IMG/VR virus record: IMGVR_UViG_2740892370_000019 | Length of the DNA: 9,625 nucleotides | From: a virus | Lineage: Duplodnaviria; Heunggongvirae; Uroviricota; Caudoviricetes | Direction: 5' to 3' (one strand) | Shown here: piece after piece, positions 1-9,625 of the stretch | Numbering within the stretch: position 1 is the first letter of the stretch | Layout: every line of letters begins with the position of its first letter | Notes under the pieces: generated by a model | The model's input: the letters and a program-made list of their open reading frames with translations, nothing else | The model's database searches: none | What the model was told of the DNA's origin: nothing | Made by a program: the position numbers and the translations under genes

Positions 1-251
1 GGTCATGGCCTCCATAGTGATGGCGGGTCCTCCTTGTGGGGTGCCCTGCCACGGGGCGGGAGCATCGCGGAAAAAGGCTAGTTTTTGCATTTTTATTCGT
101 CATCACCACCAATGCAATATATTGATATGACTTGATGTTTTATTTTTCGGTGTCGATTTCGATTGTTTTTTGTTCATCACTGACGCATAACGCCCACCAG
201 CGCAACGCTGAAAGCCAGTCAGTAAACTGGCTTCGGTCATTGTGCACTACG

Positions 252-794
252 TTACTTGTCTTTATCCGGCTGAAACTTATCAGGCACATTTCCGGTAGTT
301 TCCATCAGATAATCGGACAGCATTCGCGGGATGTTTTCATCAAGTTTTGTGCATGCGTTACAGGCTCTGACAACTTCTTTTTTCAGGCCATCCAGCATGA
401 CGGGGGTCATCTGTGGGAAGCTCCTTTGCATAGTAAGCGGGAGGCTGTCCATGATTGATGAAATCTGACTCGCCAGTTTTGAAAGGGCGTACATGCAAAA
501 CTCTGTATCAATCACGTCACCGCGATCGCGCTCGTTTTTAAGTTCCTGCGCCTCCGCCTGTGCTGTCAGTAATCTGATCCTGACTCGTAAGAGTTCATCA
601 TCATCAATCTCGCCTTTGTCGTTTGTAAGCTGGCTAATTGCATTGTTAACCCTATTGTCTATCACGCTGGCAACATCATAAAACGCCTCACGGCCTTTAC
701 GTTCAACGGGAGTCACTCCCCACTTGTCGAATGCTGTAGCACTTACCCGGCAGCTTTGCGCCATGGTTTTTTTGTTCATCAGGTGCGATTTCAT
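252..794 (-). CDS. Terminase small subunit, lambda Nu1-like
   Basis: Translation aligns along its length with lambda Nu1 as I remember it (181 aa), e.g. LTAQAEAQELKNERDRGDVIDTEFCMYALSKLASQISSIMDSLPLTMQRSFP versus lambda LTRAQADAQELKNARDSAEVVETAFCTFVLSRIAGEIASILDGLPLSVQRRFP. It lies immediately downstream of a lambda-type cos site, as Nu1 does in lambda. The track start at 797 is a TTG; the first ATG is at 794 with GGGA upstream, and another ATG at 779 gives MNKK, matching the lambda N-terminus VNKK. Confidence 0.85.
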   Translation of the reverse strand: MKSHLMNKKTMAQSCRVSATAFDKWGVTPVERKGREAFYDVASVIDNRVNNAISQLTNDKGEIDDDELLRVRIRLLTAQAEAQELKNERDRGDVIDTEFCMYALSKLASQISSIMDSLPLTMQRSFPQMTPVMLDGLKKEVVRACNACTKLDENIPRMLSDYLMETTGNVPDKFQPDKDK

Positions 795-860
795 CAATAT
801 CCCAACTTGGTCAAGGTTTCAGGTTGGTGTGTTGGTGTTATCTTTCCCTTTTTATTCATG

Positions 861-985
861 GAGATAGAGCAAACAACAAAACCACCACCACCACCCTGAA
901 AAAGCTCATAAATAGCGAAAAACCGCGAGGTCGCCGCCCCGTAGCCTACCGGATCGCCGGAAAGGACCCGCCAGCCAGAACGGGC
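861..985 (-). other. Lambda-type cohesive-end site (cosQ-cosN region conserved, cosB side diverged)
   Basis: The reverse complement of 928..975 reads GCTGGCGGGTCCTTTCCGGCGATCCGGTAGGCTACG followed by GGGCGGCGACCT. This nearly matches the lambda right end GGGTCCTTTCCGGTGATCCGACAGGTTACG joined to the 12-nt cohesive end GGGCGGCGACCT (here at 928..939). The next 25 nt toward the TerS gene (CGCGGTTTTTCGCTATTTATGAG) also match the lambda left end, after which the sequence diverges and includes a (CCA)n/GGTGGTGGTGGTGG tract at 881..896. Confidence 0.8.
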
Positions 986-995
986 CCTAATTTCA

Positions 996-1379
996 TCAAC
1001 CAATCAACTTATAGCGACCATCCCGTGCATTGCGACGTACACGCTCAATCTTGAGGCATAGCGCCGCATCTGGCTTTTTTGGGACAGGTACGCGGCAATA
1101 TTCAGAAGCTCGAGGAATATTGTTTATCCAGTCGATCACTTCACTTAAATACCAGGCCTTACGCCCTTCCGTAACCTGTACGCGTTCGGGGAACTCTCCG
1201 CGAGCCTCAAGGTTTAGCAATGTGCGACGGCTAAGGGTAGTAAGTTCCATCACCTGATTCATATCAACAAGGCGTTCACTTAAACGCATTTTGTCAGCAA
1301 TAGCCTTTAATTCCTCTACTGCTGGATCCGGATACATCATTTCGGCAATTGGCTTAAGGTCATTGTAATGATTCTGCAT
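996..1379 (-). CDS. AlpA-family (phage excisionase/regulator-like) HTH protein with N- and C-terminal extensions, 127 aa
   Basis: The central segment LTTLSRRTLLNLEARGEFPERVQVTEGRKAWYLSEVIDWI fits the AlpA/Xis-type winged-helix signature (hydrophobic HTH, GxFP, R..W..SEV..W). The ATG at 1379 is preceded by AGGGGG at 6 nt and sits 11 nt after the stop of the upstream decoration gene, suggesting coupled expression. The stop abuts the cos site. Confidence 0.65.
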   Translation of the reverse strand: MQNHYNDLKPIAEMMYPDPAVEELKAIADKMRLSERLVDMNQVMELTTLSRRTLLNLEARGEFPERVQVTEGRKAWYLSEVIDWINNIPRASEYCRVPVPKKPDAALCLKIERVRRNARDGRYKLIG

Positions 1380-4047: not shown

Positions 4048-6171
4048 TTAATCTTCTGCCTCAGGCTGGAACATCAGCACGTAAAAAACATGCTGCTTCC
4101 CCCCAATTTTGCCGAGAGCCTTTTTCTTGTAACGGCGATCGTTACCCGCTTCCAGCATTCCGGCAGCACTCAACGCGCGGGCAAAGTGGGACGGGTTAAA
4201 TCCCTGTGCGATCTCCCCCTCAAACACATGAGGAAACGTGTAAAAACGGAACTCATCATCTTCATTTCTGATACTCCCCTTTCTGTATCCGGCAAGGTCT
4301 TTAATCGGTAAATCACGTTCATCACTGTTTGGGTAAGGAAGGTATCGACTGAACCCGAACGACGACAAAAACGCCTCAGCCTGTTCAACCATCTGTTTAA
4401 ATTCCCTGTTACCCGTGCCGAACTCCTTCACCCAGGCATTAAAGTTATGCTGTATTGCGTCCCGGCATTCCTGCGCGGCCCAGCCAGTTACATGACCGGA
4501 AAGCACAAGCGCGGCCTCCAGTATGGCGAAACGCTCACCCACGCGGTGGACCTGCTCGCCGTAGCTCTCCGGTATCAGGTTGCGCCACCGTTCGCGGCAT
4601 TCCCTTACCGTATCCTTTGCCTCCTGCTGGTGGCCTGCCAGCCATTTAACCCACTCACGACCCGCTGCCCCGTGATTTTCTGTCCAGGCATCCTTTAACG
4701 CGTCTGCGTGCGCCTTTCCGGTGCTGTATTCGTGAAAGTGCGTGGCTTTTTCCATCGGAACGTTAAGCAGGCGGACAAGCTGCCCCGCTTTGACTTTTAT
4801 CCCCTCCGTTTTGAGGAATGTCTCAACGTCCATTTCTCCGGTGCTGATTGCCACCGTGCGCCAGTGTTTTATCTCCCGGTTGCCGCCGTCCTTCGCCCCC
4901 TGTAATTTCCCGGAACCGTTAAACAACGTATAGGCTGACGTGGACACCTCCCGCGCGTTTCCGGCCTGGCCTATTTCATCCAGGGGTAACAGCCCGTCGT
5001 TGTGCGCCTCTGCCTCGTTAGCGATACCTAACGCTGTGCCGTACCAGGTCAGCCGTTGTGCGTCCGGCTCTCCCCATAAACTTGATGCGATGTTCTGCGT
5101 GGTGGTTTTCCCTGCCGATGACTGTTCGAAAAGATGTACCCCGAAGCCGTCAGCACCAACAAGGCCAATCAAAGGTGCTGCCAGTGACGTGGCAACACCC
5201 AGCATCATGGACGGATTGCCACCAGCCAGCCGCGCCACGCAGTCGCGCCAGCCCTCCGCCGTACCCGCAACCGAATAGCCATTAACAGCGGCACTTTTTC
5301 CGGTAAACAGGATCGGTTTTTCAGAATCACCAATGATTGAGCCGTCCGGCATGATATACGCGCCAAAATGCCAGCCCGTTGTTGTGCTTAGCTGCCATTC
5401 CTCATGGCTTCCGCTTAACTGCATCCAGTCAGCCAGGATAGCCCTGTATTTGCCGTTTGTTGTCACGTTCAGCCCGTGATCTTTAAGCAACCGCCAGCCG
5501 TCACGGTCGCCAATGCCACCACACGGGATCGCCATTGTGATGACTTCATGGTTTGCTAATTTTTTCCAGCGCATCACGCGGTAATGCTCTTTACCGATCG
5601 TCCCCGTTCCCAGTAGTTCAAGCGGAGAACATAACCACGTCTCAGGCCGGATAATTTCGCCTGACTGCTTATCCACTTTGGGCGTTACCCAGAAAACACC
5701 ATCGACGCGACTTTCAACGCGGGGCTTTAATTCATCATCCTGATAGCATGGCTCTTTTTTCTTTACAGGCAGTTCAACTACCTTTTTCTTTTCCGCCTGC
5801 TCTGCCCGTTCACGTTCCAGATATTCGCGCCAGTTCTCCCGTTTCTGGCTGTGCATTCCTTCAGGGTAATAATCAGCATCCCTGACACCTGCCGCTGCCA
5901 GTTTCTGCCCGATGGTATTAACAAGCCCCGGACGCAATAACCCCGCCTGGTAGAGACGCACGCGATAGCGTCCGTCCGGTACGATTTGCAGGTTGTCCAG
6001 TTCGGCAAGTTGTTGCTCTCCAAGCCAGACAGGTGGCACGTTATCGCCAGCCAGTCGCCCGTCCTGTTCCTGCCACTGCTTCGCATGTGCCCACGCATCA
6101 CTACCCGCAAAAATGATGACTTCCGTCATTTTGTCACGCGGCTGGTGTTTTAAATTTGGCGCTTTTTTCAT
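4048..6171 (-). CDS. Replication protein, primase/helicase-like (P4 alpha / D5-type family assignment tentative), about 707 aa
   Basis: Large ORF with a central P-loop-like motif FEQSSAGKTT. It is the last gene of an operon beginning near the operator region and lies next to the iteron array, the layout expected for a satellite pri-rep gene. The track start at 6186 is a GTG; the ATG at 6171 (MKKAPNL...) has GGAGAG at about 8 nt and overlaps the stop of the upstream gene. Family membership was not verified. Confidence 0.75.
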   Translation of the reverse strand: MKKAPNLKHQPRDKMTEVIIFAGSDAWAHAKQWQEQDGRLAGDNVPPVWLGEQQLAELDNLQIVPDGRYRVRLYQAGLLRPGLVNTIGQKLAAAGVRDADYYPEGMHSQKRENWREYLERERAEQAEKKKVVELPVKKKEPCYQDDELKPRVESRVDGVFWVTPKVDKQSGEIIRPETWLCSPLELLGTGTIGKEHYRVMRWKKLANHEVITMAIPCGGIGDRDGWRLLKDHGLNVTTNGKYRAILADWMQLSGSHEEWQLSTTTGWHFGAYIMPDGSIIGDSEKPILFTGKSAAVNGYSVAGTAEGWRDCVARLAGGNPSMMLGVATSLAAPLIGLVGADGFGVHLFEQSSAGKTTTQNIASSLWGEPDAQRLTWYGTALGIANEAEAHNDGLLPLDEIGQAGNAREVSTSAYTLFNGSGKLQGAKDGGNREIKHWRTVAISTGEMDVETFLKTEGIKVKAGQLVRLLNVPMEKATHFHEYSTGKAHADALKDAWTENHGAAGREWVKWLAGHQQEAKDTVRECRERWRNLIPESYGEQVHRVGERFAILEAALVLSGHVTGWAAQECRDAIQHNFNAWVKEFGTGNREFKQMVEQAEAFLSSFGFSRYLPYPNSDERDLPIKDLAGYRKGSIRNEDDEFRFYTFPHVFEGEIAQGFNPSHFARALSAAGMLEAGNDRRYKKKALGKIGGKQHVFYVLMFQPEAED

Positions 6172-6473: not shown

Positions 6474-6794
6474 TTATCCCCGATTTGAATCAGTATTCGC
6501 TTTCTTTATGGCATTTAATGCATTTGTGGCATTTTCAATGGTGCACCGTAGCGAAATATCAAAATGCCCAAGCATTGCCAGTAACAAACCAATATTACCC
6601 ATATCAATGCGCATGGCCTTTTCGTCATAGTCCTCATTTTCTGACGCATGCCACATCAGGCTACCAATTGACGCAACAGCCATTGATATATTGTCAGTAG
6701 CCCCATCCGCAGCGGAATAAACCTTTTTAGCAATATCATGCTCACAGTTAAAATGCGGATTAATCAGGTACTGGTAATTTGACATATCAGGCAT
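6474..6794 (-). CDS. Hypothetical protein (106 aa), AT-rich
   Basis: The ATG at 6794 overlaps the stop of the upstream small ORF (ATGCCTGA overlap); compact operon arrangement. No family recognised. Confidence 0.6.
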   Translation of the reverse strand: MPDMSNYQYLINPHFNCEHDIAKKVYSAADGATDNISMAVASIGSLMWHASENEDYDEKAMRIDMGNIGLLLAMLGHFDISLRCTIENATNALNAIKKANTDSNRG

Positions 6795-6990
6795 GGAACA
6801 CCCCCTGACGAATACGGGCGGCGAATACCATCACGCAGCCAGCCGGGGATTGCTGGCGTGCTTCCTGTTCGCTGCTGGCCTCAATGGTAATCACGCGCGG
6901 TTGTGCCGTACTCAGGGCGATAAAACGCCAGATGTATTTATTCAGGTTGTGCGAGTCCCGCCCTTGCGGGTGTGTGGTATGATTTAGCAT
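6787..6990 (-). CDS. Hypothetical small protein (67 aa), first gene of the replication operon
   Basis: ATG at 6990 preceded by GAGGT at 5 nt; the stop overlaps the next gene start. The track shows this only as the C-terminal end of an implausible 367-aa read-through ORF. GC-rich, and an opposite-strand ORF (6793..6987) exists, so coding status is uncertain. Confidence 0.35.
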   Translation of the reverse strand: MLNHTTHPQGRDSHNLNKYIWRFIALSTAQPRVITIEASSEQEARQQSPAGCVMVFAARIRQGVFHA

Positions 6991-7087
6991 AGCTACCTCG
7001 ATAATCTTTCTATCGTTGGTGGTTAGAAGCCCGGTTAGTGTTAGCGCACTGCCGGGTTTCGTCGTTTCTGCACCTTGCATCAACAAG

Positions 7088-7160
7088 GTGTTAAACACCA
7101 ATTTAAGCCTAGGTGTTAAACACGTCAAGTGTTGAACACTTATTTTTTTTCCTGCATACT
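7088..7160. promoter_or_regulatory. Three palindromic operators with an overlapping candidate promoter for the plus-strand regulator gene
   Basis: GTGTTAAACAC at 7088..7098 and 7113..7123, and GTGTTGAACAC at 7129..7139; each has half-sites GTGTT/AACAC forming an inverted repeat. Centre spacings are about 25 and 16 bp. TTGAAC (7132..7137) lies inside the third operator, then a 17-bp spacer and CATACT (7155..7160), about 30 bp before the ATG at 7190. Confidence 0.55.
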
Positions 7161-7189
7161 GCATTTGTTTTTTGTAAGGGGTACACAAC

Positions 7190-7369
7190 ATGGCGACAAA
7201 AGCAGTAAACGCAAAATCACAAACAGTTGCGGCAAGGGTTCCGCATGAAGTTATGAACAATGTTGAGGCGGTAAAAATGCCTGGTGAAAGTACAGGGCAG
7301 TTTGTAACAGCAGCATTAAAGCGAGAAGTTGAATACCGCCAGCGTCGCAAGGCCAAAGAGCAGGAGTAA
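7190..7369 (+). CDS. Small ribbon-helix-helix-like DNA-binding protein (59 aa), candidate repressor
   Basis: Not in the ORF track (under 60 aa). MATKAVNAKSQTVAARVPHEVMNNVEAVKMPGESTGQFVTAALKREVEYRQRRKAKEQE: a TVAARVP beta-strand followed by two short helices fits the RHH (CopG/Arc-like) pattern. AAGGGG Shine-Dalgarno about 9 nt upstream; sits directly downstream of the operator triplet. Confidence 0.5.
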   Translation: MATKAVNAKSQTVAARVPHEVMNNVEAVKMPGESTGQFVTAALKREVEYRQRRKAKEQE

Positions 7370-7426
7370 CCATCACCAGCGCCGTGGTGCGGTGAACTGT
7401 GGCGCACAGGGTTACAGGTATCTACG

Positions 7427-7624
7427 ATGACTGACAAATCATTAAAGAAATTATCCTCATCCAGGGAAAAACAACGCAAAAACGCGGTAAGCGAACAAGA
7501 ACAGGAAAGATTCGCACCATGTGCGTTTGTCCTTGAGAAGTTCCTTAAAGAGTACAGGCGCACAAAAATGGGATCGCATACCTGGAAAACATCGCAGCAT
7601 GGCGATGCTAAAGAGCAGGAATAG
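7427..7624 (+). CDS. Hypothetical small basic protein (65 aa)
   Basis: ATG with AGG at about 7 nt; charged, Lys/Arg/Glu-rich composition. Lies between the RHH-like gene and the plus-strand terminator. An overlapping opposite-strand ORF (7457..7645) looks like low-complexity hydrophobic read-through. Confidence 0.3.
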   Translation: MTDKSLKKLSSSREKQRKNAVSEQEQERFAPCAFVLEKFLKEYRRTKMGSHTWKTSQHGDAKEQE

Positions 7625-7712
7625 CCCACCAGCAAGCCAGCACACTGATCACATTGCCCACCAGCCAGCAAATCGCTATGATGTTCGGGCTTATGTTTAG
7701 TGTTTTCCCATT

Positions 7713-7740
7713 GGCGACCGCCCCCGGTCGCCTTTGTTTT
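7713..7740 (+). terminator. Rho-independent terminator
   Basis: Perfect 8-bp GC-rich stem GGCGACCG (7713..7720) / CGGTCGCC (7725..7732) with loop CCCC, followed by TTTGTTTT (7733..7740). Placed where the plus-strand small genes converge on alpA. Confidence 0.65.
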
Positions 7741-7759
7741 ATGTGTCATATGCTCCCCT

Positions 7760-7969
7760 TTACGCTGCCTTTCCTGAATTAATGCGATCCCGGCTTTTAA
7801 CCCATTCCATAACCTCAGACTTAACCCAGCCAACCGAACGACCTCCAAGACTGATACGGGAGGGAAAGCGGCCTTGTTTTTCCATCTCATAACGAGTTGT
7901 ACGGCAAACGCCTGTTAGCTCTCTGCATTCTTTTTCACGGATTACACGATCTTCATTTATTTCGCGCAT
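7760..7969 (-). CDS. alpA: AlpA-family prophage regulatory protein (69 aa from the ATG at 7969; possible longer form from GTG at 8053)
   Basis: CRELTGVCRTTRYEMEKQGRFPSRISLGGRSVGWVKSEVMEWV matches the AlpA signature (HTH, G.FP, R.VGW..SEV.EW). Adjacent to and co-oriented with the integrase, as in CP4-57/P4-like elements. The track N-terminus starts at a GTG. Confidence 0.8.
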   Translation of the reverse strand: MREINEDRVIREKECRELTGVCRTTRYEMEKQGRFPSRISLGGRSVGWVKSEVMEWVKSRDRINSGKAA

Positions 7970-8386: not shown

Positions 8387-9625
8387 TCAAGAATTTTGGG
8401 TGTAAATTCGCGGGGTCATAACAACGATTTTTTCATCATTGTTCTGGAGAAGCTCGAGACGGTCTACCCATAGATTAAGAGCATCACGTTTTGCATCAAG
8501 ATAGCGGGAGTGGTTATAGACTCGTTGCATCCCTGGCATCTGGTGGGCTGTAAGCTGCTCGACAATATGCGGATCCACGCCTAAATCGTTCAGCATGGTT
8601 GTAAATGTGTGCCGGATATCGTGTAACGTCCAGGGGGCTTGATTAATTCGTCTGTGCGCTGTTCTTCCGTACTCTGCTACCGAAGATTGTCCTTTCAGTT
8701 CACCAAGCAATAAGCCCGTGTGTCTGTTCTGCTCCACCAGCTGCGTGATGAACGGCAAAATGCTTTCCGGTATTGGCCTGAATATGGCGACCTTCGTTTT
8801 GCTGTGCTCCTTCGGTACCGTCCAGAGCATTTCTTTAAAATCCCACTCCTGCACCTCAGAGCGCCTTAGCTCGGTGGTACGGCATCCGAAAACAATCAGG
8901 AGGCGAATTAGGGCGCTGTAGTACGGCGGGAATATTTTGTCATCCAGGGCGCGGAGTAATTCCCCAAGCTCCTTGTTTGTTAGTACGCGCTCGCTCACTT
9001 CTGCTTTTTTTCCCACATCACCGACAACCATATCATCAAGAACGTTGCTGATTGCGTATCGTCGTTTTCGGCAGTACTTAAGCGCCTGTTTGCATACCTG
9101 TAGCAAAAATCCGGCAGATACTGGGCTTCGCTTTGCCATCTGGTCAAAACATGCCAACCAGTGCCGTAGCTCGCATTTTTCCAACGGCAAAGCGCCAATC
9201 TGGCTGATTATGTGTTTATTGATCCGGCTTTTCAGTGATTCGTAGTCAGTGCGCTTTTCCTTTGCATACGATTCAAGCCAGTAAGTGAGCGCTTCCTTAA
9301 CTGTCACGGGGGCTAACGCATCCTGTACAGCACGATTAAGCTCATAGCGCGGATTTTTCCCCTCAGCCAGCCAGGCGCGACACTGTGCTGCTATTTCCCT
9401 GGCTGCTTTCAGGCTCAGATCGGGATAATTGCCCAGTCTCAGACGTTCCGGTGATACCTGCCTACCAGTTCCGGCCCTGTAAGTGAAATACCAGGTTAAC
9501 AGGCCGCTGGTGGAATGTCTTACGCTAAGATTGCCACCGTCATTAAAAAAGGCGTTTTTTGTGGTTGGTGATCCGCTTAATTTTCGTAAAAGAGTGTCGC
9601 TAAGTCTATGAATTGCGCTGCTCAT
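8387..9625 (-). CDS. int: Tyrosine site-specific integrase, P4-type (412 aa)
   Basis: Full-length ORF with the start at the window edge. The C-terminal catalytic region contains LHDIRHTFTT and ...GMQRVYNHSRYLD (His-x-x-Arg and the catalytic Tyr context). Size and the adjacent alpA are typical of P4-like integrase modules. Confidence 0.9.
   Translation of the reverse strand: MSSAIHRLSDTLLRKLSGSPTTKNAFFNDGGNLSVRHSTSGLLTWYFTYRAGTGRQVSPERLRLGNYPDLSLKAAREIAAQCRAWLAEGKNPRYELNRAVQDALAPVTVKEALTYWLESYAKEKRTDYESLKSRINKHIISQIGALPLEKCELRHWLACFDQMAKRSPVSAGFLLQVCKQALKYCRKRRYAISNVLDDMVVGDVGKKAEVSERVLTNKELGELLRALDDKIFPPYYSALIRLLIVFGCRTTELRRSEVQEWDFKEMLWTVPKEHSKTKVAIFRPIPESILPFITQLVEQNRHTGLLLGELKGQSSVAEYGRTAHRRINQAPWTLHDIRHTFTTMLNDLGVDPHIVEQLTAHQMPGMQRVYNHSRYLDAKRDALNLWVDRLELLQNNDEKIVVMTPRIYTQNS

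Follow-up and report, generated by a model that had tools for sequence, protein, structure and literature searches.

A putative packaging module with lambda-type cosQ and cosN, an N15/Monarch-like cosB and its own small terminase in a common E. coli satellite island

How would an island that carries a cos site but no large terminase have its DNA packaged, and which protein would read that site? The question is raised by a stretch of 9,625 nucleotides, IMGVR_UViG_2740892370_000019 (hereafter the window, meaning the whole stretch that was analysed), in which a cos site is directly followed by a gene for a small terminase subunit (TerS). We interpret positions 252-990 as the packaging module of a phage-inducible chromosomal island (PICI) of E. 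coli, of the EcCICFT073 type, in which lambda-type cosQ and cosN are joined to an N15/Monarch-type cosB, and a full-length TerS of the island's own would read that cosB and recruit the large terminase (TerL) of a helper phage. We place the probability of this reading at roughly 0.68. The features on which it turns are as follows.

963..969, (-) strand: cosQ, GGGTCCT, 23 nt upstream of cosN, the same spacing as in lambda; aligns to lambda 48473-48479
928..939, (-) strand: cosN, the 12-nt cohesive-end sequence GGGCGGCGACCT, identical to lambda, with flanks kept from -30 to +45
870..901, (-) strand: R3-equivalent part of cosB, TTTCAGGGTGGTGGTGGTGGTTTTGTTGTTTG, cos bp 39-70; includes (GGT)5 at 895..881 and the TTGTTGTTT block
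817..839, (+) strand: putative R2-like site, inverted with respect to the R3-like site; TTTCAGGTTGGTGTGTTGGTGTT, cos bp ~101-123
796..808, (-) strand: possible R1-like site in direct orientation, AAGTTGGGATATT, weak and degenerate in the window, immediately ahead of the TerS start codon
252..794, (-) strand: terS, encoding a Nu1-family small terminase of 180 amino acids, in which an N15-type N-terminal DNA-binding domain is followed by a conserved assembly domain in the centre and a diverged tail with a 12-residue extension
570..901, (-) strand: apparent exchangeable specificity cassette, cosB plus terS codons ~1-75, with a breakpoint near window position ~565 (about codon 77)

The core of the site is of the lambda type, having the cosQ heptamer and the 12-nt cosN at the lambda spacing. 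The composite GGGTCCT-N23-GGGCGGCGACCT has a single exact match in the window, at 928-969 (-), and none in 200 shuffles. When both ends of NC_001416 were joined to give the lambda cos junction, local alignment of window positions 970..895 to lambda cos from -30 to +45 gave 67 identities in 76 positions. Blocks of 20 bp around cosN have 16, 19 and 17 identities, and past +45 the count drops to chance level (6-11 of 20). The window and lambda have in common cosQ, cosN and, on the right arm, about 33 bp next to cosN. An earlier note, made from the letters of this DNA, had described the cohesive end and its flanks as nearly identical to those of lambda, and these counts bear it out. The cosN of N15 departs from that of lambda at two of 12 positions, whereas the island cosN is lambda's. 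On the upstream side, a gene for an AlpA-family helix-turn-helix (HTH) protein at 996..1379 (-) stops 27 bp before cosQ.

Between cosN and terS, the R3-I1-R2-R1 sequences of a lambda-type cosB are replaced by a different R-like set. No lambda R sequence (R consensus, at most two mismatches) was found from cosN to the TerS start (positions 790-930), and the three matches in the window all lie at unrelated places elsewhere; the lambda I1 consensus was not found in the cosN-terS segment either. The earlier note had called this segment unrelated to lambda cosB and had pointed to a repeat tract in it. The tract is the (GGT)5 at 895..881, and the lack of lambda R sites and of an IHF consensus upholds the claim as far as lambda is concerned. 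The segment is nevertheless not an orphan: judged on sequence, the island cosB is N15/Monarch-like, carrying both the TTGTTGTTT block and an inverted pair of R-like sites.

The first of these features came from an alignment of the R3-equivalent part to N15 and to the satellites L009, L015 and L064-69. In all satellites whose TerS has an N15-type DNA-binding domain, a (GGT)n tract followed by TTGTT(G/A)TTT occurs at the same place, MAFFT places this latter block on the R3 site of N15, and the TTGTTGTTT block is common to the island and N15 R3. R3 is the single critical site of N15 and was mapped to bp 48-59, GAGGTTGTTGTT, where GTTGTT matters most (PMC4669245). The island TTGTTGTTT occupies cos bp 61-69, compared with about bp 48-60 for the GTTGTT core of an N15-type R3. 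In cos1 of EcCICFT073 (locus L014, 25558-25625) the sequence ACCACCACC at bp 55-63 is the complement of the island (GGT)n tract and lies at about the same distance from cosN. The island thus has (GGT)n/GTTGTT in one orientation with an inverted partner, where EcCICFT073 has ACCACCACC, and the complementarity may be a coincidence or may reflect common ancestry of the two cosB types.

The second feature is a 13-nt inverted repeat, complementary at 12 of 13 positions, with 59 nt separating the arms. One arm, TTTCAGGGTGGTG, spans cos bp 39-51 and the other bp 111-123. The inverted R-like pair itself reads CAGGGTGGTG / CAGGTTGGTG. Exact matches to CAGGKTGGTG occur at two sites only in the 9.6-kb window, 820-829 (+) and 889-898 (-), and the distal arm, ACACC(A/C)ACCTGAA, is kept in E. 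coli variants and in Superficieibacter despite diverged flanks. At the R1-like position, degenerate in the window, L067 and L068 read AAGTTGGTGTATT, which pairs with the R2-like site at 12 of 13 positions, and some island variants carry an additional direct R1-like copy immediately upstream of the terS start codon. Feiss et al. (2015, PMC4669245) report an R3, inverted R2 and R1 layout for the complex cosB of the Monarch group, whose R sequences are of the N15 type; the resemblance is a putative one, the Monarch cosB being compared by its description only. Inspection by eye, not a systematic search, showed no remote rR2 inside terS at the position equivalent to that of N15.

The protein encoded next to this cosB, labelled "terminase small subunit" in RefSeq (WP_000835287.1), is a Nu1 homolog, as the earlier note had stated. 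BLASTP against lambda Nu1 gives 2e-35 at 37% identity, and the Pfam model Phage_Nu1 (PF07471) scores 81 bits (cut-off 30) over residues 63-147 only; this match takes in the central domain and leaves the DNA-binding domain outside the alignment. With the domain boundaries of lambda Nu1 applied throughout, identity to lambda is 17/49 with 19 gap columns (35%) in the DNA-binding domain (lambda residues 1-68), 12/28 (43%) in the linker and 21/41 (51%) in the assembly domain (residues 100-140), which is the best-conserved part and is also 21/41 identical to N15.

The DNA-binding domain, like the cosB, has a relative in N15. It is 57% identical to N15 gp1 (28/49), and N15 gp1 is also the closest phage TerS overall (47.5%) in a collection of 50,697 phage records. 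The putative recognition helix reads VSATAFDKW in the island and ISVQAFDKW in N15, differing in three of nine residues. Alignment thus assigns the domain to the N15 type and argues against an orphan. In an AlphaFold2 model, residues 5-56 have the beta-alpha-alpha-beta-beta-alpha topology of a winged helix, with a predicted local distance difference test score (pLDDT) of about 70-80 there. A search of PDB sequences with TerS retrieved neither the Nu1 DNA-binding domain nor an Rpp chain, which fits a DNA-binding domain of a type other than lambda's but is otherwise uninformative. In the C-terminal part, the motif [DE]x[IL]Px[ML]Lx[DE]Y[IL] is common to the TerS proteins of the island, lambda and phage PhiR5_1.

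The best in-silico support that cosB and TerS are a cognate pair comes from their joint exchange among sibling islands. Compared with sibling island L006, window positions 560..171 are identical at 39-40 of 40 positions per block, whereas 794..570 and cosB match no better than chance. The sibling TerS P0097 (194 amino acids), found in islands at the phoQ site, has a lambda-type DNA-binding domain joined to the same C-terminal half, and the cosB ahead of it is lambda-like, with R3-like GTCAGTTCTTCTTGT and R2-like AAGAAAGAAACGACATC; this type of cosB is almost identical to that of PhiR5_1. The two regions co-vary: satellites with an N15-type domain all have a GGT/GTT cosB, and in the siblings a lambda-type domain goes with a lambda-like R3/R2 cosB. 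It appears that cosB and the DNA-binding domain are transferred jointly, and that the C-terminal half of TerS that receives them is fixed and of a satellite type.

These observations suggest how the island might be mobilised. On induction of a lambdoid helper, the island TerS would bind its own cosB, and its C-terminal half would recruit the gpA-type TerL of the helper. TerL would then nick cosN, island concatemers would enter heads made by the helper, and packaging would stop at the next cosQ/cosN; the lambda-type cosQ and cosN would let any lambdoid large terminase nick and terminate. Such a system would be a cos-phage counterpart of the TerS strategy of the pathogenicity islands found in Staphylococcus aureus (SaPIs), and would replace the Rpp adaptor of EcCICFT073. 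The anatomy of the module, its family context, the co-variation and the cassette swap can be read in the alignments; that TerS binds this DNA and recruits TerL, and which phage serves as helper, we infer. The earlier proposal, a satellite with a helper-compatible cosN and a cosB-TerS pair of its own, holds in that cosQ and cosN are of the lambda type, TerS directly follows cos, and cosB co-varies with the DNA-binding domain, and is weakened where it relied on contact with lambda gpA.

That weakening is one of several points that weigh against this mechanism. The last 41 residues of lambda Nu1 are the proposed gpA-binding segment (PMC9026076). The earlier note had this gpA-contacting part as the best conserved and the N-terminal part as the most diverged, and the alignment does not agree: after 35%, 43% and 51% for the three preceding segments, the last 41 residues of the island TerS are only 14/41 (34%) identical to lambda and about 34% to N15, and are followed by the 12-residue extension, so that the centre is the best-conserved part. 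The tails of lambda and N15 are 80% identical (33/41). Because the tail is not the best-conserved part, the argument from contact with lambda gpA is weaker than was stated. The nearest phage C-terminal half among the 50,697 records, that of PhiR5_1, is only 56% identical and, with the gpA-binding tail at 34% and its 12-residue extension, this weighs against taking direct TerL binding by the island TerS for granted. A search for the helper in the same collection found no TerS above 47.5% overall or above 56% in the C-terminal half, PhiR5_1 being no more than the nearest class. The AlphaFold2 model as a whole has low confidence (pLDDT 63), and Foldseek returned nothing significant for it, the top matches being MerR-type winged-helix proteins at E = 0.09-0.8. 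In cosB, the TTGTTGTTT block is 9 bp more distant from cosN than in N15, and the common variant L067 (TerS P0076; 6862-7003) is two GGT units short, which brings GTTGTT 6 bp nearer to cosN. Both facts are awkward if the spacing of cosN and R3 must be kept as strictly here as in lambda. No IHF consensus (at most one mismatch) was found between the R-like sites. Finally, inducing the resident prophages of strains IHE3034 and 18098 did not lead to transfer of the two TerS-encoding E. coli islands tested there (Fillol-Salom 2018, PMC6092414).

The diverged gpA-binding tail, together with PhiR5_1 as the nearest C-terminal half, makes it probable that the helper is not lambda itself. The TerL of PhiR5_1 has an N-terminus unlike lambda's over the first ~35 residues, a difference consistent with the existence of TerS-TerL docking classes.

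The same pattern of conservation could mean that the island TerS works as an Rpp-like adaptor, co-assembling with the helper TerS through the central domain so that the island domain reads cosB, the helper TerS contacts TerL and packaging of the helper is poisoned. We judge this, the main rival, unlikely. In its favour, the central domain is the best conserved with respect to both lambda and N15 and the gpA-binding tail the least, and the Rpp of EcCICFT073, encoded at the same locus, acts through heterodimers with phage TerS (PMC6739421, PMC9026076). Against it, the protein has kept a full-length C-terminal half with an IPxxLxxY-type motif; this half is near-invariant across islands that differ in the DNA-binding domain, which suggests a specific partner of its own. 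The island protein, at 180 amino acids, is also not an RppA/B/C homolog of 135-153 amino acids, and it has no sequence similarity to RppA of CFT073 (L014, 25660-26094; BLASTP E = 1.3).

A helper terminase might also use the island cos directly, through cosN and cosQ alone or through a relic second cos, in which case TerS would mainly interfere or be dispensable. The second site lies at the edge of the window.

25..65, (+) strand: degenerate inverted cos2, with cosQ GGGTCCT at 25-31, a 22-nt spacer and a cosN-like sequence, GGGCGGGAGCAT, at 54-65 (8/12)

Lambda and phi80 by themselves still transferred cloned EcCICFT073 cos sites with a foreign cosB, though less often (PMC6092414, PMC6739421), and the inverted cos2 is intact in EcCICFT073 and in the sibling TerS islands L064, L065 and L067, of which L065 and L067 have it with a lambda-like CCGTTCTTCTTC cosB. 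We nonetheless regard direct use as very unlikely. The cosN of cos2 is degenerate in the present island, the co-variation of cosB with the DNA-binding domain would be unexpected were cosB irrelevant, and neither lambda nor 21 terminase packages N15 DNA with its N15-type cos (PMC4669245). Past the cosN of cos2, within the region 25-127, we also observed CACCACCA at about 101-108 and an exact IHF consensus, TATCAATATATTG, at 115-127 (-).

The surroundings of the module point to a satellite. In complete genomes, for example that of strain 2015C-3163, the island occupies ~10.5 kb between clpS and cspD, and the window is 99.9% identical to complete E. coli chromosomes. The order of genes is integrase, AlpA, Icd-like protein, DUF4222, DUF927 primase-helicase, SSB, gpE-like major capsid protein (MCP), gpD-like decoration protein (Dec), a second AlpA-family HTH protein, cos, TerS and a 94-residue protein, followed by clpS; Pfam backs each gene assignment. 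The main genes outside the module are these.

8387-9625, (-) strand: integrase, at one end of the island
7760-7969, (-) strand: AlpA (PF05930)
4048-6171, (-) strand: DUF927 primase-helicase
1391-2782, (-) strand: gpE-like MCP (346 amino acids) and gpD-like decoration protein (113 amino acids)
996..1379, (-) strand: AlpA-family HTH protein of 127 amino acids (Pfam PF05930; PDB 8c3t AlpA, 1.6e-10), adjoining cosQ upstream

In the annotated region with 9 kb of flanks, no gene for a large terminase, portal, protease, scaffold, tail or lysis protein was found, and MCP, Dec and TerS are the only phage-structural genes. The expectation in the earlier note, that a satellite would have no large terminase just past the edge of the window, agrees with the single 94-residue gene, and then clpS, that lie beyond the left edge. 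Lambda gpA, used as a tblastn query against the related satellite locus L015, gave no match either. Because it is a ~10.5-kb island between clpS and cspD with no large terminase, the element is, on its gene content, a satellite. It has the genomic features of Gram-negative PICIs, being an island within the range of ~10-15 kb at a specific attachment (att) site with a terminal integrase, with AlpA and a primase/replicase module in one direction (AlpA, DUF927 primase-helicase, DUF4222 and SSB are all encoded on the minus strand), and without lysis, tail, portal or TerL genes; the five PICI core components (int, alpA, pri-rep, a capsid gene and terS) are all present. Two other satellite types were considered and rejected: a capsid-forming PICI (cf-PICI), since the only such genes are MCP, Dec and TerS, with no portal, protease, TerL or connectors, and a P4-like satellite, on gene content.

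That the window might instead be the decayed left end of a lambdoid or N15-like prophage, with a remnant packaging module and no satellite, is suggested by the phage derivation of TerS, MCP and Dec. We reject it on gene content as highly improbable: MCP-Dec-X-cos-TerS is not a phage gene order, the integrase, AlpA and primase-helicase modules are intact with all open reading frames (ORFs) open, and the published definition of PICIs is matched (PMC6092414; bioRxiv 10.1101/2022.09.14.508007). The same small element of 10 kb is also seen at more than one att site and in more than one genus, and 14% of complete E. coli genomes have it.

The satellite module is widespread. A segment spanning cosB and the N-terminus of TerS (window 570-990, at least 80% coverage) was found in 763 of 5,426 complete E. 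coli genomes, and O157:H7 and O55:H7 strains are among the carriers of this island type. The MCP-Dec-X-cos-TerS module occurs at three E. coli att sites (clpS, phoQ and ccm-proximal) with different replication modules, as well as in Enterobacter-type contigs and in Superficieibacter. The matches listed in a scan of GTDB were mostly lambda-like prophages and lambda contamination. In L009-L011 (~8100-12500) the same module adjoins lambdoid genes, first a capsid gene E truncated at its 5' end and then FI, FII, Z, U, V, G, T and H; the arrangement is a helper-embedded satellite integrated in gene E, of the kind described in bioRxiv 10.1101/2022.07.18.500453. The same preprint reports that PICI capsid genes are dispensable for transfer, and the MCP and decoration homologs of EcCICFT073 have been examined by deletion (PMC6092414).

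The closest known system is EcCICFT073, which adjoins phoQ in CFT073 and belongs to the Rpp-type cos PICIs (Fillol-Salom 2018, PMC6092414; 2019, PMC6739421; Murialdo and Feiss 2022, PMC9026076). It has the same order, int-alpA-icd-DUF4222-pri-SSB-MCP-Dec-X-cos-[rpp/terS]-93aa, and both elements have lambda-like cosQ/cosN, a non-lambda cosB, a specificity gene directly 3' of cos, MCP and decoration homologs and an inverted second cos, the last degenerate in the island and intact in EcCICFT073. The gene of 93 codons after rppA encodes a protein 71% identical to the 94-residue protein of the island. The principal difference is that a 144-amino-acid RppA, dissimilar in sequence to TerS, takes the place of the island's TerS; in EcCICFT073, Rpp exploits the cosB difference (PMC6739421). 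N15 (PMC4669245), with the similar DNA-binding domain and the TTGTTGTTT core of R3, is a phage, whereas the island is a satellite with no TerL after terS and with a TerS tail unlike those of N15 and lambda (14/42). From lambda the island differs in the absence of R3, R2 and R1. By analogy, the scheme would be that of other TerS-encoding PICIs, including the pac SaPIs with TerS_S, in which a satellite TerS and its own recognition site are used with the helper TerL; SatelliteFinder lists TerS as PICI "core component v", "responsible for redirecting the packaging" (bioRxiv 10.1101/2022.09.14.508007). Compared with the pac SaPIs, the island has a cos in place of headful packaging, and its cutting and termination sites appear compatible with a helper, the differences being confined to cosB and the DNA-binding domain. 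We identified no Ppi-like partner in the island.

Much of this scheme was known. E. coli PICIs with conserved cosQ/cosN and a foreign cosB have been described (PMC6092414, PMC6739421, PMC9026076), TerS-bearing E. coli PICIs were reported in 2018, and TerS is an established PICI core component (bioRxiv 10.1101/2022.09.14.508007). The N15/Monarch type of the cosB and DNA-binding domain, the inverted R-like pair and the cassette swap with its breakpoint were not found in the literature searched, and are an incremental addition. Their importance is modest and they open no new class of system: they place a very common type of E. coli island (14% of complete genomes) in the known scheme of PICI packaging. 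For the TerS-type cos PICIs, of which neither helpers nor mechanism had been settled in 2018, they also supply concrete, testable sites, namely the pair of R-like sequences, the TTGTTGTTT block and a breakpoint near codon 77. The cassette swap could help to predict which helpers mobilise which islands, and could guide the design of cos-based delivery particles with orthogonal specificity.

A wider proposal, which we offer tentatively and doubt rather more than we believe, is that packaging specificity in E. coli PICIs is a swappable cassette with a fixed breakpoint and a satellite-specific TerS C-terminus, that the N15/Monarch-type cassette is one-way insulating, and that the C-terminus is a separate TerL-docking class. 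If this were true, helper terminases of the lambda or 21 type could not initiate packaging on the island, while the island TerS, paired with a helper TerL, could start packaging on the island and perhaps also on the DNA of the helper. The docking class would fix the range of helpers, and the system would be a full-length-TerS alternative to Rpp.

Some neighbouring genes also merit description. Sibling islands have an unrelated ORF of 137 amino acids where the 127-residue AlpA-family HTH protein is encoded. The 94-residue gene 3' of terS (window 1-15; L002 8698-9015, (-)) starts with an (ATGACC)5 repeat encoding (MT)n, and its product has no match in Pfam. An ORF of 367 amino acids at 6787-7890 (-) is probably spurious. 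At 7190-7624 (+), between alpA and the Icd-like gene, lie a gene of the YlcI/YnfO family and a hypothetical gene, the sole genes opposing island transcription; the pair is also present in EcCICFT073.

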